DNA of 57,191 nucleotides from a virus (Duplodnaviria; Caudoviricetes): positions 1-57,191 of IMG/VR virus record IMGVR_UViG_3300028394_000089; one strand, 5' to 3'. Under the pieces are notes generated by a model. The model saw nothing but the letters and a program-made list of their open reading frames with translations. It had not been told where the DNA came from and did no database searches. The first letter of the stretch is position 1. Each line of letters starts with the position of its first letter. The translations under genes and the position numbers were made by a program. Below, one piece after another: positions 9,241 to 49,408 of the stretch.

Positions 9241-10407
9241 ATGAAATGGCCATTAAATAAAAATAATTTTACTATTTTAGACAGATTAAAAATTTGTAGT
9301 TTTATACTTAATTTTAAAAATAGATGGACACAAGATATACAAGTAAAAAAATTTGAAAAGAAAATGGCTGACTATGTTGGCTGTAAATATTCAGTATTTG
9401 CAGGCAATGGCTCATTAGCTAATAATTTATTAGCGCAATATATTAAGCATAAAGTTCCCAATAAAAAAATTGTTGTATTTCCATCGATAACATGGCAAAC
9501 GTCTTGCTCTCCATGGATTAAAGCTGGTTTTGAACCACATTTTATTGATATTTCTTTAGAAGATTTTTCTATAGATAGGACAAAACTTCTTGAATATGTA
9601 AAAAAGAATAAAAATAAAATTGCTTGTATTTTTCCAACTTCATTAATTGGTTTTACTCCTAATTTTGATTTTTATAAAAACTTAGAAAAAACATACAATG
9701 TTAAAATCATGTTTGATAATTGTGAGAATACTTTAAGTTTTTATGGAGATAAAAATATTTCTTCATTTTTTACCTCTTCAACTTCTACATATTTTGGACA
9801 TCAGATTCAATCTATAGAAGGTGGATTTATTTTTACAAATTCAGAGGATGAATATAAATATTTTTTGATAAACAGAAACCATGGAATGGTAAGAAGTTTA
9901 ACTTCTTATGGTTTTGATACAAAAGAAATAGATAATCCAAAAGTAGATAATTTATTTGATTTTTATTCTTTAGGAGATAATTATCGCGGTAGCGATTTAA
10001 ATGCTTTTATTGGGCAGCTTGATTTTAATCGTATAAATTTATATACGGATTCCAGAAAAAAATTATACTCTTTATTTAAAGAAAACTTAGATAATAATAA
10101 ATATTATTTACCATCTGATCGAAACAAGTGTTCTGATGTTCCATTTTGTATTCCTATTATTATTAAAAATAAAAATAAAACAAGATTTCAAACGGCTTTA
10201 AATATTTGTAAAAAATTAGGAATTGAATATCGACCCATTGTATCTGGATTTTTAGGGTATCAAAACTGTTATAAGGATTATTTTAAATCGGATAAAGATT
10301 ACCCCGACTCAGTTTATTTACACAATTATGGATTTTATATTGGTTTATATCATGGTATAAAAGAAAAAGACTTATTAAACTTAACAAGTTTTTTAAATGA
10401 AATTTAA
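9241..10407 (+). CDS. DegT/DnrJ/EryC1/StrS PLP-dependent sugar aminotransferase/dehydratase (ColD-like)
   Basis: NGSLAN, DNCE, STYFGHQIQSIEGG (His at the PLP-Lys position as in ColD/E1 dehydratases), RNHG. Confidence 0.88.
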   Translation: MKWPLNKNNFTILDRLKICSFILNFKNRWTQDIQVKKFEKKMADYVGCKYSVFAGNGSLANNLLAQYIKHKVPNKKIVVFPSITWQTSCSPWIKAGFEPHFIDISLEDFSIDRTKLLEYVKKNKNKIACIFPTSLIGFTPNFDFYKNLEKTYNVKIMFDNCENTLSFYGDKNISSFFTSSTSTYFGHQIQSIEGGFIFTNSEDEYKYFLINRNHGMVRSLTSYGFDTKEIDNPKVDNLFDFYSLGDNYRGSDLNAFIGQLDFNRINLYTDSRKKLYSLFKENLDNNKYYLPSDRNKCSDVPFCIPIIIKNKNKTRFQTALNICKKLGIEYRPIVSGFLGYQNCYKDYFKSDKDYPDSVYLHNYGFYIGLYHGIKEKDLLNLTSFLNEI

Positions 10408-10810
10408 AAATATCTTTGGAAAAGATGTTAACAAAAATATTAATAAATATTTAGTTAAATGGAATGAACCATGTAGAAGTAAAGTACAGTTTAATATTAA
10501 AAAGTTCTTTGAAACTTACTGGAAAACACATATTGTTGTAGAGGAGTTTCCTGTTTTTGGAAGTAGGATGAAATGTGATTTAATAAATTTTACAAAAAAA
10601 ATTGCAGTAGAAACACATGGCCTTCAACATGATAAATTTGTGAAACACTTCCATCGTACACGAACTGGTTTTAAAAAAAGCGTTAAAAGAGATTTACAAA
10701 AATATACTTGGCTAGAAATGAATGGTTTTCAAATTATTGAAATTTTTGAAAATGAAACAAGTCTTTTAGACTCTGATTGGATAAAAGAAAAATTTGATAT
10801 AGAAATTTAA
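10397..10810 (+). CDS. PD-(D/E)XK/DUF559-like endonuclease
   Basis: EEFPV...D...IAVETHGLQH...RD..K. Confidence 0.65.
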   Translation: MKFKNIFGKDVNKNINKYLVKWNEPCRSKVQFNIKKFFETYWKTHIVVEEFPVFGSRMKCDLINFTKKIAVETHGLQHDKFVKHFHRTRTGFKKSVKRDLQKYTWLEMNGFQIIEIFENETSLLDSDWIKEKFDIEI

Positions 10811-10845: not shown

Positions 10846-11445
10846 ATGGATCCATTATACATTGGAATTTCTGGGGTTTCTAGGTCTGGAAAAGATAGTC
10901 TAGCAAGCGAAATAGAAAAAATTCTTAGAACTTATATCCGAAGTGCTTTTATTTATAAAAGTTCATTAGCCCATCCGCTTAAGGAAGATTGCGCAGCTTT
11001 TATTAAGAACTATTTAAACTTAAACGTTTTTACAGATAAAACCGAAGAGAAGTCTATTTTTCGTGAATTTCTTGTTTGGTACGGTAAAGTCAAAAGACAA
11101 CAAAGCGAAGGCAAGCACTGGACAAACCTTTTAGATCAGCGCGTTGAAAATTTTCAACCAGATATTTGTATTGTTCCAGACGTTCGTTATCAACAATATC
11201 GGGAAGATGAGGTTAGTTGGCTTAAATCAAAAAATAGAAATGTTCTTATTCACTTGCAAAGAATTGCAATTAATGGTGAAATAGTTCAACCCGCAAATAT
11301 GGACGAATCAATTAACGACTCTATTCTTCAAGATATGGCAGACTATAAAATTGTATGGCCGACGTTCGTTGAAGAGGGTAAAGATGAGTCCATGAGAGAA
11401 ATTGCTATCAAAGCATTCAATACAGTTATTAAGGAAAAAATTTAA
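10846..11445 (+). CDS. deoxynucleoside monophosphate kinase-like P-loop kinase
   Basis: IGISGVSRSGKDS, LAHPLK, VPDVRY..E. Confidence 0.78.
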   Translation: MDPLYIGISGVSRSGKDSLASEIEKILRTYIRSAFIYKSSLAHPLKEDCAAFIKNYLNLNVFTDKTEEKSIFREFLVWYGKVKRQQSEGKHWTNLLDQRVENFQPDICIVPDVRYQQYREDEVSWLKSKNRNVLIHLQRIAINGEIVQPANMDESINDSILQDMADYKIVWPTFVEEGKDESMREIAIKAFNTVIKEKI

Positions 11446-11447
11446 TT

Positions 11448-12926
11448 ATGGCGTCAATTCGTAGCGTAGATATAGAAAAACACGTTCTAGCTGGCTTTAT
11501 CAAGCATCCAGGGGTATTCTTTGAAGTATCTCACTTCATTAATGAGGGCGACTTTAGCAATGGTCATAAAACCATCTTTAGCGTTCTAAAAGGGCAGATT
11601 ATGAAAAGTCAACCACTTGATGCGGTAATTATCGCTGAAAAGATAAAGAGCTTGGGCATTAGTTATAAACAGGATTTTAATATTTTTGATTACATAGAAA
11701 GCATTGCCTTTCTAAAGATTAGTCAAAAGTCTCTTTTGGAAGCGTGTAAGAATCTTAAAACAATTACGATTCGGCGCGAAATTGCTGAAACGGCGGGGCT
11801 AATTGCAGATTCGATGTCAAATTCTGGAGATAAATCTGCAGATGAAATTATTACTCTTGCAGATAAGATGTATAACGATAAGATTTCGGCTTACGACTTA
11901 GAATCAAATCCAGAAGACCTTTTTTCTGATATAGATAAGCTGATTGAAGAGAGGGCTAATAATCCAATTTCAGAAACAGGATTTTTAACCCCATATAAAC
12001 ATTTTAATAAAATGTATGGCGGACTAAGGCCTGGGGAGCTTTACGCTTGGGTAAGTCGTCCAAAACATGGTAAGAGCACAATTCTCAGTGATATTGCAGC
12101 TAAAGCCACTTTAATTAACCCGAATTTACAAGCTTTAATTCTTGATACTGAAATGCAAACTAGCGTTATTAAATTTCGTATTGCTAGTAGTATTACTGGT
12201 ATTCCAATGTGGTATCTAGAAACTGGTAATTTTAAAAATAATCCAGAATTGTTGGCAAGATGGAATAGTAAAAAGACAGAGTTATCCAAAGCACAGGGTA
12301 AGGTAAAGCATCTTCAAGTGGCTGGAAAACCAGTTTCTGAAATCGAATCTATTATTCAGCGCTGGTATCTTGGGCAAGTTGGTCGTGGTAATCCAGCTAT
12401 TGTGGTATATGATTATATTAAACTAACTGGAGAAATGGAAAAAAATAAACAGGAGTATCAACTTATTGGCGACAAAGTAGATCGTTTGAAAGAGTTGTCG
12501 GTTCGTCTTAATATTCCATTGCTTACTGCTTGCCAATTAAATCGCAGCGCCGAAAATGGTGCGGATGATAGCAGTGCTATTGCACAAAGTGATCGTTTAC
12601 AATGGTTTGCAGCGTATGTGGGTATTTTTCGTCGTAAAACAATTGAAGAGCGCGCAGAAGATGGCGCGCAATTCGGTAGTCATAAAATGATTGAGCTTGC
12701 GGCGCGTTATCAGGGTCAAGATGCGCATGGTCATACAGATTTAGTGCGTATTGTAGAAAATGGTCGCCCACAATATCGTAAGAATTTTATTTCTTTTAAT
12801 GTCGAAAATTTTAATGTAGAAGAGAAGGGAACGCTTCAAGATATTGTTAACCATCAAAATGGTGTGGGTATTAATATTTTTGATCGTGAAAATGGCGTAC
12901 AGCAACCAGAGGATGGATTACTATGA
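11448..12926 (+). CDS. dnaB: replicative DNA helicase DnaB
   Basis: GGLRPGEL, SRPKHGKS Walker A, VYDYIKL, CQLNR. Confidence 0.93.
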   Translation: MASIRSVDIEKHVLAGFIKHPGVFFEVSHFINEGDFSNGHKTIFSVLKGQIMKSQPLDAVIIAEKIKSLGISYKQDFNIFDYIESIAFLKISQKSLLEACKNLKTITIRREIAETAGLIADSMSNSGDKSADEIITLADKMYNDKISAYDLESNPEDLFSDIDKLIEERANNPISETGFLTPYKHFNKMYGGLRPGELYAWVSRPKHGKSTILSDIAAKATLINPNLQALILDTEMQTSVIKFRIASSITGIPMWYLETGNFKNNPELLARWNSKKTELSKAQGKVKHLQVAGKPVSEIESIIQRWYLGQVGRGNPAIVVYDYIKLTGEMEKNKQEYQLIGDKVDRLKELSVRLNIPLLTACQLNRSAENGADDSSAIAQSDRLQWFAAYVGIFRRKTIEERAEDGAQFGSHKMIELAARYQGQDAHGHTDLVRIVENGRPQYRKNFISFNVENFNVEEKGTLQDIVNHQNGVGINIFDRENGVQQPEDGLL

Positions 12927-39199: not shown

Positions 39200-39450
39200 T
39201 TTAAAAACTAATTTCTTAGTATATTCATTAAAGAATATTTAAATTGTGGACTATATCTTCATCTGATTAGTTATATCAGAGCTGGACGCTAATCTGGTTA
39301 TTAAGAGGGCTTTACCTCTCCAGTAGTCTCTGAACCTTCTAAAAATGTATTTTTAGCTTGGCTGCTGATTGGCATATCATATTTTATGATTTAGCTTTCC
39401 AGCAATTCATCCAGTTTTAATCGAAGCATCACTGCTAAGTCAACCCATTG
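39196..39450 (-). mobile_element. group I self-splicing intron (255 nt, ORF-less) in the tmRNA T-loop
   Basis: 5' exon ends in U with a U:G P1 pair (TCAACT/GGTTGA); P AATTGCTGGAAA (39407-39396), Q AATCAGCAGCC (39370-39360), R GTTCAGAGACTA (39335-39324), S AAGATATAGTCC (39259-39248); terminal G at 39196. Confidence 0.92.
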
Positions 39451-39697
39451 AGTTGAACCCCTGTCCATTTAATTTATATTAAAAGGTCTACATGTTTTAG
39501 TTTCTTTAGCATTTTAGCCACCATACGGTAACTTGGACTTTTAGGCTGCTTGGCGACACTAACCTTAGTTTTAAGTCTGCCTATAGATTATTATCGCAAA
39601 TCTACATACGGAGGATTTTTTTTGTTACATTGATATAGTCCACAATTCAATAACCTCTGCTATCAATTAACCCTTAGAGGATCTAGGTTAAAGGATC

Positions 39698-39802
39698 TTA
39701 GGCTGCTAAGAGGTACTCTTCTTCAACTTCCCCGAGGAACTCGGAGGCATTGTTGAAGATATATTCTGCTTCAGCCAAGATTGCATCAGTATTATCTTCT
39801 GC
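39698..39802 (-). other. tmRNA tag reading frame AEDNTDAILAEAEYIFNNASEFLGEVEEEYLLAA*
   Basis: GCA resume codon placed just after pk1 (inferred); open to TAA; ends in LAA. Confidence 0.85.
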
Positions 39803-39987
39803 GTTTGGTTTTTAATCGATTTTTTACGAGGCCATCGATTAACCTCGACATGCGCTTTTAATTTCAACTAAATGTCGAAACCAGTACACGCCCAAAATTT
39901 CAAAGAACTAACTAATGATAAGCTTTATTACACTGTTTGTCAATAAAAAGATTGATATTTAAATAAAAAAAATATAACATTAATATT

Positions 39988-42692: not shown

Positions 42693-42765
42693 ACTCCTAT
42701 AGTTCAATTGGTTAGAACGGTCTGTTTATAACGGACAAACCTTGGTTCAAATCCAAGTAGGAGTA
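42693..42765 (+). tRNA. tRNA-Ile(TAT)
   Basis: ACTCCTA/TAGGAGT-A, GTCTG-TTTATAA-CGGAC, CTTGG-TTCAAAT-CCAAG. Confidence 0.88.
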
Positions 42766-42808
42766 CTATACTATACGTGTAATATAATACAATGACTTTA
42801 TTAAAATT

Positions 42809-43003
42809 ATGACAGCATCAGCCGAACCTAATAAAAAATCTAAAGAATATTTATCCTCAAGGGCATGGTCAGAAGAATGTATAACAAATATTAAAAAAAT
42901 ACAGGATGAATTTTTAGATCATTATTACAATGATAAAAAAGAAAACACTGCTATACTTAAACTTTTGCAACAGTTGGTAGAAAGATTAGAAAAAAATATT
43001 TGA
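42809..43003 (+). CDS. hypothetical protein
   Basis: 64-aa ORF. Confidence 0.55.
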   Translation: MTASAEPNKKSKEYLSSRAWSEECITNIKKIQDEFLDHYYNDKKENTAILKLLQQLVERLEKNI

Positions 43004-43035
43004 CATTAAGCTAAAAACAATGTAATAATATATAA

Positions 43036-43241
43036 GATCTGGCAGTAGTAAACCTTTCCAGATCGGGATGCGCTCTCTTTGCCTGTTAGTGTGTTGGGGG
43101 TGCTCATTCTAAGCTAGTCGAGCTAGGCTACATAAAGCTATGACGCTATGCATTATTCAATACAGGCTTTGACGTTGATAGGTCTGCGAACCTCGCGGAC
43201 GCTTCGTTAAGTAAGGGACAAGTTCTAGGCCAAAACCCTTC
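43036..43241 (+). ncRNA. candidate structured ncRNA of unknown class
   Basis: Non-coding, GC-richer than its flanks, directly after TTGACA-17-TAATAA; stems GATCTGG/CCAGATC, GCCTGT/ACAGGC, GTCTGCGA/TCGCGGAC, AAGGG/CCCTT. Confidence 0.6.
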
Positions 43242-43299
43242 AAATACTATTTAAAAAAAGAATTGACATCCCTACCAATTTTACATATAATATAAGACT

Positions 43300-43824
43300 A
43301 TGATGAAATATATCAAAATCGCAGTAGTCATGTTGGTAACGACTGGTTCAGTCATTGCTGGCACTGATTTTAAATCAAATAAAAACGTTATTGAAGACAC
43401 TTGTCGTTTTCGTGACACCGAACTCCAACTCGACCTTTTTGGCACGGGCGGGTTCTATCAAGAGGGTAATCCAGGATGGGGCGGTGGCGCTGCAGTCAAC
43501 GTGTTTTTTCTCAAGTATATTGGTCTTGGAGTAGAACAAAGTTTGGCGGCGCGTAATGACGCTACAGAATGGGGTACTTTTGGTAACCTGTTCTTGCGTT
43601 ATCCAATTTGCAGTTGGAACTTGTCTCCATATGTTATGGCTGGACTCGGAGCTGTTTACGGTTCTAATAATGACGCAGTACTAGCTGGCACTGTTGGTGG
43701 CGGATTAGAATACCGATTCACAGATAATATTGGTATTTTTGCTGACGCACGTTGGCTTTACAATGCCGAAGCTAGTGATAGCGGTGCAGTCTTGGCGCGC
43801 ACTGGATTGAAATTTGCTTTCTGA
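43300..43824 (+). CDS. outer-membrane beta-barrel protein (8-strand OmpA/Ail-like)
   Basis: Signal peptide, alternating amphipathic strands, SPY..AG.G, GGGLEYRF, C-terminal F. Confidence 0.88.
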   Translation: MMKYIKIAVVMLVTTGSVIAGTDFKSNKNVIEDTCRFRDTELQLDLFGTGGFYQEGNPGWGGGAAVNVFFLKYIGLGVEQSLAARNDATEWGTFGNLFLRYPICSWNLSPYVMAGLGAVYGSNNDAVLAGTVGGGLEYRFTDNIGIFADARWLYNAEASDSGAVLARTGLKFAF

Positions 43825-43846: not shown

Positions 43847-43880
43847 AATAATGGGTCTAGAAATAGGCCCATTATTTTTT
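43847..43880 (+). terminator. intrinsic terminator
   Basis: AATAATGGGTCTA-GAAA-TAGGCCCATTATT followed by a T tract. Confidence 0.85.
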
Positions 43881-49321: not shown

Positions 49322-49408
49322 GGAAGCGTACTCAAGCGGTTTACGAGAGAAATTTACTAAATTTCCGAGGTCTAAAAGCCTCCGTGGGTTCGAATCCCAC
49401 CGCTTCCT
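49322..49408 (+). tRNA. tRNA-Ser(ACT)
   Basis: GGAAGCG/CGCTTCC, GAAAT-TTACTAA-ATTTC, long variable arm GAGG/CCTC, GTGGG-TTCGAAT-CCCAC. Confidence 0.85.

Follow-up and report, generated by a model that had tools for sequence, protein, structure and literature searches.

A probable gene for a structured RNA of about 214 nt in the tRNA islands of large uncultured freshwater phages

What does the long, G+C-enriched and apparently non-coding stretch behind a promoter in an uncultured phage encode, a leader of the next gene or an RNA in its own right? The window, by which we mean the whole stretch of DNA analysed, is an A+T-rich virus record of 57,191 bases with a completeness estimate of 33%. It carries 14 tRNA genes (ARAGORN), and its genes include those for a DnaE-type DNA polymerase, a DnaB-like helicase, a clamp loader and sugar-nucleotide enzymes. 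Since the polymerase is less than 28% identical to anything in 50,697 phage records, we assign the window to an uncultured lineage. The original prediction had placed an unassigned structured RNA of about 205 nt, transcribed from its own promoter, at 43000-43241. We found the stretch to be real at this place: the gap between open reading frames (ORFs), the base composition and the promoters were borne out, but some of the proposed helices were not. The locus contains the following features.

43000..43029, + strand: predicted sigma-70-type promoter, TTGACA (43000-43005), 18-nt spacer and TG-extended AATAAT (43024-43029), 11 of 12 consensus matches
43036..43249, + strand: complete RNA element of 214 nt, bounded by the base of P1 and the last base of the tail AUACUA; ends of the nhmmer and covariance-model matches
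43263-43291, + strand: separate promoter of the next gene, TTGACA-17-TATAAT, 12 of 12 consensus matches, outside the RNA
43300-43824, + strand: beta-barrel outer-membrane-protein-like ORF, weak Pfam matches

No + strand ORF of 30 aa or more lies within 43004-43299. The G+C content of the stretch is 0.39-0.48 versus 0.24-0.27 just upstream, which agrees with the enrichment claimed earlier, and the next gene is equally G+C-rich. The RNA promoter had been read as TTGACA-17-TAATAA; the site holds, but its register was one base off, the spacer being 18 nt and the -10 box AATAAT. Transcription is predicted to start at ~43035-43036, the first base of P1; the 24 runs listed for this DNA include no RNA run. 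A TTGAC[AT] box also lies 36-39 nt 5' of P1 in 16 of the 31 family members (described below) with enough upstream sequence, and together with the 11/12 site in the window this supports the claim of an own promoter. The separate promoter of the next gene, previously recognised from TTGACA at 43263, proved to be a perfect consensus site, and it lies so close to the ORF that the mRNA would be nearly leaderless. This ORF is G+C-rich, has a signal-peptide-like start and weakly matches outer-membrane beta-barrel families, one match being from a cyanophage. The only terminator-like site in the locus scan is at 43847-43876, 3' of the ORF; with none between the RNA and the ORF, read-through into the latter is therefore possible. 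The nearest tRNAs in the window lie 269 nt upstream and 632 nt downstream of the RNA.

Taken alone, the window sequence does not fold better than chance. Its minimum free energy was -56.6 kcal/mol versus -59.1 +/- 4.5 kcal/mol for shuffles (z +0.57; 143 of 200 shuffles as good), and the fold of the other strand was also no better than that of shuffles (z +0.26). The helix list of the original prediction was thus, by itself, not beyond chance, and the question passes to homologues. A blastn search with 42780-43320 against the 50,697 phage records matched nothing, and the upstream 64-aa ORF used as bait gave one weak locus. Relatives of the downstream gene led to locus L008, where a sequence resembling the non-coding stretch over its full length is found 3' of the homologous gene, with a tRNA ending 8 nt before it. 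We also ran pattern scans of viral and metagenome contigs and of one genome from each prokaryote species, first with a shared 16-mer and then with degenerate patterns that span the loop-2 core and the P6 loop. The 16-mer occurred in 47 loci, 14 of which contained the RNA and the others a short match only. After removal of duplicates and chance matches, 32 distinct sequences were obtained, namely the window and 31 others in phage or lake-metagenome contigs, and 31 of the 32 are included in alignments A2 and A3. The homologues were confirmed by nhmmer and by covariance model R1, with 110.7-220.6 bits for 31 sequences and 147 bits for L087. Ten loci (L070, L061, L086 and L088-L094, the last seven partial and at most 22 bits) were chance pattern matches and were excluded before counting. 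In two of the pattern scans, which covered 185,579 prokaryote species with one genome each, the RNA was found on a single contig, a 7-kb tRNA-rich contig of a metagenome-assembled genome (MAG). Since the loop-2 core, CGUU, GACAA, the C..G of the P6 loop and AAAMC are set by the patterns, part of the invariance of these letters is built in.

The homologues supplied the evidence that the single sequence did not. With the common fold imposed, 83.2% of cells were paired, compared with 71.6% in shuffles (0 of 500 reached the observed value) and 33-43% with the partners slid; changes on both sides occurred in 32 of 52 pairs versus 11-17 when the partners were slid. Because P2 and L1-L4 fall out of register between clades in the MAFFT and model alignments, we used alignment-free duplex energies, comparing cognate with non-cognate strands over 18 sequence clusters by a permutation that, like the other statistics given here, ignores phylogeny. 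This gave p<=0.0002 for P1, P2, PK1, P3, P5b and P6 and p=0.0018 for P4. G-U cells outnumber A-C cells by 179 to 40, favouring the + strand. A conserved ORF was not found in the members: their lengths (216-231 nt) do not differ by multiples of three, and the longest open stretch, between 32 and 76 aa, keeps to no constant frame. In the window's clade, the RNA is the locally best conserved segment, with 94-96% identity versus 89-94% for the flanking genes where these are homologous; in L083 (39%) the upstream ORF is replaced. We conclude that the stretch probably does encode a structured RNA, its fold being kept through compensatory changes in 32 distinct homologues.

As an independent element the RNA stands, but its length had been underestimated: it measures 214 nt (43036-43249) rather than about 205 nt. 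The comparison gives the following parts.

43036..43064, + strand: P1 hairpin, GAUCUGG (43036-43042) with CCAGAUC (43058-43064)
43065..43110, + strand: P2, 43065-43077 with 43096-43110, 13 bp and a 2-nt bulge; P1 and P2 abut
43078-43095, + strand: loop L2 of P2, 18 nt, UUUGCCUGUUAGUGUGUU
43081..43086 with 43162..43167, + strand: pseudoknot 1 (PK1), GCCUGU in L2 with ACAGGC, 3' of the P3/P4 arm
43087..43092 with 43244..43249, + strand: probable pseudoknot 2 (PK2), UAGUGU in L2 with the 3' tail AUACUA (AYACUA across members)
43113..43151, + strand: P3/P4 arm, P3 43113-43118 with 43145-43151, P4 43122-43124 with 43136-43138
G43120 A43121 facing G43142 A43143, + strand: kink-turn-like junction with a 3-nt bulge, 43139-43141
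43125-43135, + strand: loop L4, in which GCUAC (43127-43131) kisses GUAGU (43045-43049) of L1
43169..43210, + strand: P5 hairpin, with P5a UUGACG (43169-43174) and CGUUAA (43205-43210)
43182-43188 with 43194-43200, + strand: P5b, GUCUGCG with CGCGGAC, the inner part of P5
43213..43240, + strand: P6 hairpin, AAGGG (43213-43217) with CCCUU (43236-43240)
P6 loop, + strand, 18 nt: ACAA, the decamer GUUCUAGGCC (43222-43231) and AAAA, with the palindrome CUAG at 43225-43228
43244..43249, + strand: 3' tail AUACUA, partner in PK2 and probable mature 3' end

Several of these parts, namely P2, the P3/P4 arm, both loop-2 pseudoknots and the L1-L4 kiss, had been omitted or misdrawn in the earlier helix set. 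The 5' hairpin GATCTGG/CCAGATC (P1) had been recognised, and it is retained through compensatory changes: both sides change in five of its seven pairs, 91% of cells are paired, and cognate strands give -12.0 kcal/mol versus -5.7 for non-cognate ones (p<=0.0002). P2 is poorly registered in alignment A3 (62% paired), and the helix forms in 31/31 sequences from very different strands, for instance GGUAAG.UAGUC/GGCUACUUACU, GAAUAAG/CUUAUUC, and GCCA/UGGU versus GCUA/UAGC; its duplex energies are -10.8 (cognate) versus -5.8 kcal/mol (non-cognate), with p<=0.0002.

GCCTGT/ACAGGC had been drawn as the closing helix of a long simple domain. Its pairing is upheld by compensatory changes, but GCCTGT lies within the loop of P2 and the pairing is therefore a pseudoknot. 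All six pairs of PK1 form in 31/31 sequences (100% paired), with C-G replaced by U-A in nine and U-A by G-U in one; both strands are partly fixed by the search patterns. The helix TAGTGTGT/ATGCATTA proposed inside that domain was rejected, as it conflicts with P3, contains mismatches in nine members of the AAGC type and, in the three relatives closest to the window, is interrupted by insertions. The other half of the loop-2 pairing, PK2, has at least five contiguous pairs in 29/31 sequences, L023 and L039 having four pairs and a G.A mismatch. An A-U to G-C exchange (UGGUGA with UACCA or CACCA) is found in 8/31 and again in L087, and the loop bases can alternatively be drawn against GCAUU. As a single pair covaries, we regard PK2 as probable only. 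In the predicted fold, comparison shows the 18-nt loop L2 to be fully used by PK1 and PK2 together.

Both sides change in three of the six pairs of P3 and in two of the three pairs of P4. Between them, no variation is seen at G43142 and A43143, A43121 is conserved to at least 90% (alignment A2), and the 3-nt bulge with the opposite-strand GAG is visible in 31/31 full-length rows. In the kink-turn consensus, a regular and a non-canonical helix are joined through a 3-nt bulge and then tandem G.A/A.G pairs; the sequence here fits this consensus, and the P3/P4 junction may well be a kink-turn. An L7Ae protein was not found in five phage records. The loop contact between L1 and L4 recurs in several forms (GUAGU/GCUAC, GCAGC/GCUGC, GCAGG/CCUGC, CAUGAC/GUCAUG, CAUGAU/AUCAUG and GUGGCC/GGCCAC), with cognate strands at -8.4 and non-cognate ones at -5.0 kcal/mol (p<=0.0002).

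In the 3' half, the pairing GTCTGCGA/TCGCGGAC listed earlier corresponds to P5b and is maintained by compensatory changes (both sides in 5/5 modelled pairs; 99% paired; p<=0.0002). The TTGACG/CGTTAA helix enclosing it, P5a, is able to pair but lacks covariation support: its GACG/CGUU core never varies, 64% of cells are paired and p=0.81. The predicted 3' AAGGG/CCCTT hairpin, P6, also holds, with both-side changes in four of five stem pairs and 98% of cells paired.

The P6 loop has a centred self-complementary core in 33/33 rows, representing 14 distinct loops. The versions include CUAG, UCUAGA, UCCGGA, UCCUAGGA, UUCCGGAA, UACCGGUA and AUUCUAGAAU; the centre is CUAG or CCGG in every member, and the flanks covary. 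The mean Watson-Crick half-length of the palindrome is 3.2 versus 0.36 in shuffled loops (p<=0.0002), and its centre is N in the search patterns of several of the scans and hence not fixed by these. The window's own palindrome is the weakest, with four Watson-Crick positions, or six with G.U. Because the palindrome is too short to fold on itself within the loop and both halves change together, loop-loop pairing of two copies suggests itself. The A-flanked palindrome would then join two RNAs into a symmetric kissing dimer, possibly a larger assembly; our confidence in this step is evenly divided. Beside its full member, locus L018 carries a second, shorter RNA (11662-11802, containing masked NN) that shares the 3' module only, with a P6 hairpin of different palindrome, UUCCUAGGAC, and a GUACUA tail. 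Two RNAs with different palindromes in one locus suggest that they could pair orthogonally. Another lone 3' module is found at a contig end, L058:4726-4795(-).

The genomic setting is that of tRNA arrays. Of 30 related member loci, 29 have tRNAs on the strand of the RNA, as does the window. An upstream tRNA(-Cys-like) gene ends ~8 nt before P1 in seven members without the TTGAC[AT] box, and Rfam tRNA matches abut the RNA in L018, L067 and L069. On the other side, a downstream tRNA starts 6-11 nt after the tail in seven loci. The downstream neighbour varies, being the outer-membrane-protein-like gene with its own promoter (window's clade), a tRNA or an abiF-like motif. The argument that this is an independent RNA and not a leader, made originally from the separate promoter, is strengthened by these differing neighbours. 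Records with the same RNA are 170-211 kb long, with terminal repeats in one, and the RNA is single-copy in each of the five phage records, four of which are at least 92% complete.

Other RNA genes were noted in these islands. A tRNA-Ile(UAU) lies at 42693-42766 of the window, and a tRNA-Ser with the unusual anticodon ACU at 49322-49408 recurs across many related loci. Within 39226-39885 of the window (-), an Rfam tmRNA match (84 bits) ends within the 3' T-arm and adjoins a group I intron match (39226-39460, 81.5 bits); the tmRNA gene, which ARAGORN did not call, appears to be interrupted by the intron. In a related 211-kb phage, a tmRNA (L029:3176-3634(-), 135 bits) lies ~0.9 kb upstream of the RNA copy on the same strand.

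From this comparison, we consider it probable, with good confidence, that 43036-43249 (+) encodes a stable non-coding RNA of ~214 nt that acts in trans and belongs to a previously uncatalogued family, single-copy in the tRNA island of a lineage of large uncultured freshwater phages. Its 5' end would be set by the own sigma-70-type promoter, as in the window, or by 3' processing of the tRNA ending ~8 nt upstream; the 3' end would result from RNase P cleavage at the following tRNA or from trimming as far as PK2, and PK2 would also shield this end from exonucleases. The kink-turn at P3/P4 would let L4 reach L1. The folded particle would act during infection, like other phage RNAs at tRNA islands. 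We tentatively extend this to a speculative model in which the RNA forms RNA-only symmetric dimers or larger particles via the palindromic loop of P6, with a rigid core locked by two pseudoknots, the kink-turn and the loop kiss. It could then be seen as a small analogue of ROOL, GOLLD and manA, to which it is unrelated, and would belong with an orphan abiF-like RNA to a set of non-tRNA RNAs in tRNA islands, directed against host defences or serving tRNA handling.

The abiF motif bears on the first alternative. Rfam matches place it ~10 nt 3' of the RNA in five related loci, the last four below at 35.1-36.1 bits, under the cut-off of 37.

L069:6932-6968, - strand: abiF motif, 37.8 bits against the cut-off of 37
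L028:1406-1441: abiF motif
L075:670-705(-): abiF motif
L010:1849-1884: abiF motif (L010 is listed with L008)
L018:11161-11196: abiF motif

The motif string also follows the RNA in further loci. PMC12373285 describes abiF RNA as the regulator of an AbiF system. As no Abi_2 protein was found in five phage records searched, one of them 99% complete, the motif is taken as an orphan antitoxin-like RNA, and possibly a decoy. By extension, the new RNA itself might be an anti-defence decoy mimicking or trapping a defence component of the host that binds RNA, for instance by standing in for the RNA partner of a toxin-antitoxin or another RNA-dependent immune system. This would be compatible with the fold, but it rests on guilt by association, and the abiF motif is absent from the window in the Rfam scan. 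Moreover, with the RNA on one MAG contig only among the 185,579 prokaryote species, no host RNA to copy was seen. We judge this explanation unlikely. In L008 (~1958-2035) and L018 (~11200-11272), the abiF-like motif is followed by a separate conserved element, ~75 nt long and with cloverleaf-like ends (CCCUCCU...AGGAGGG); it was not called a tRNA by ARAGORN and may be a tRNA-like RNA.

The proximity to tRNA genes, with ends within ~10 nt of them in at least eight loci, would also fit a self-cleaving ribozyme, or one that assists in freeing itself and adjacent tRNAs from the transcript of the array, as would the compact fold with two pseudoknots and many invariant unpaired bases. However, none of the Rfam self-cleaving families matches, host RNase P and 3' processing already account for the ends, and members with their own promoter need no 5' cleavage, which makes this reading very improbable. 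A stable, trans-acting RNA matured by host enzymes is what we prefer.

Several RNAs without a settled role occur in the tRNA islands of phages (T4 species 1 and 2, ROOL and GOLLD). ROOL and GOLLD were recently found to form protein-free cages, and the new family is a small, tractable addition: 214 nt suits in-vitro transcription, chemical probing, native gels and cryo-EM. The comparison yields a detailed fold together with a testable prediction, dimerisation via the covarying palindrome, and offers a seed alignment and a covariance model on which a new RNA family can be founded. It also draws attention to tRNA islands in uncultured lake phages, where further non-tRNA RNAs may be sought.

Could the RNA nevertheless be a divergent member of a known family, such as manA, ROOL, GOLLD, T4 rnaC/rnaD or another, that the models missed, or a fragment already in a viral-RNA catalogue? 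Scanned with the 4227 models of Rfam 15, the window gave 14 matches at the gathering score, none of them in 43000-43260. The region 42760-43320 gave zero matches at E<=10, and in 16 related loci (E<=1 or E<=0.1) no match overlapped the element; the family, which the original prediction did not recognise, is thus unassigned in Rfam 15. The RNA is not described in the literature that we searched, of which the supplements of PMC10690425 were not a part. PMC10690425 reports 8,495 candidates mined from IMG/VR, the database of the window, but with lengths of 29-151 bases, shorter than the present RNA.

The setting does match that of ROOL and GOLLD, which PMC12286853 presents as phage and prophage RNAs without an assigned function, often near tRNA islands, with pseudoknots, kissing loops and protein-free assembly by loop-loop contacts. 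The new RNA shares with them the tRNA-island setting and has a conserved self-complementary loop. In contrast to ROOL and GOLLD, it is 214 nt long, whereas many GOLLD RNAs exceed 800 nt (PMC12286853), it has no model match and a different helix plan, and its oligomers are proposed from sequence alone.

In cyanophage S-CREM1, a manA match at 10215-10429 (~215 nt) is followed ~100 nt later by an abiF match at 10531-10567, according to PMC9964418. A 2026 preprint describes manA as a putative 5'-UTR element forming closed oligomers or cages held by kissing loops (10.64898/2026.07.01.735769). Like manA, the new RNA is a phage RNA of similar size, and an abiF motif lies downstream of both S-CREM1 manA and some copies of the new RNA; unlike manA, it is flanked by tRNAs or has its own promoter, and the Rfam manA model does not match it at E<=10.

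To our knowledge, T4 rnaC/rnaD (species 1 and 2) have no established function. They are stable RNAs of 139 and 119 nt lying directly after a tRNA (AF158101 annotation), and the new RNA resembles them as a non-tRNA RNA within a few bases of a tRNA in a phage cluster (L008 and seven loci). It differs in belonging to an unrelated phage lineage (DnaE-type polymerase), and its covariance model finds no match there: with filters off, the scores of R1 in the T4 tRNA region did not rise above noise, the highest being 9.8 bits (within segB and not at rnaC/rnaD), with 2.5 bits (E=2) for rnaC, and a similarity was rejected. By the tests applied here, none of ROOL, GOLLD, manA and rnaC/rnaD is a relative of the new RNA. 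Membership in any of these families, or in the catalogue, is accordingly a slim prospect, and we retain the reading of a separate, previously uncatalogued family.

A cis-acting leader or riboswitch for the outer-membrane-protein-like gene, to which the missing terminator and an aptamer-like complexity of fold might point, is largely refuted by the varying downstream neighbours (tRNAs or an abiF-like motif elsewhere), by the gene's own 12/12 promoter, by L008, where the RNA lies downstream and not upstream of the homologous gene, and by a 3' tail that would be locked into the core, and we give it almost no credence. The members show neither a constant place upstream of one gene class nor an expression platform. 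In SAM-I and lysine riboswitches, a kink-turn bends an arm so that its loop makes a long-range contact that locks the fold. Unlike these cis-acting aptamers, which are represented in Rfam, the new RNA has no Rfam match and no constant downstream gene; like them, it may combine a kink-turn-like junction with a long-range loop contact.
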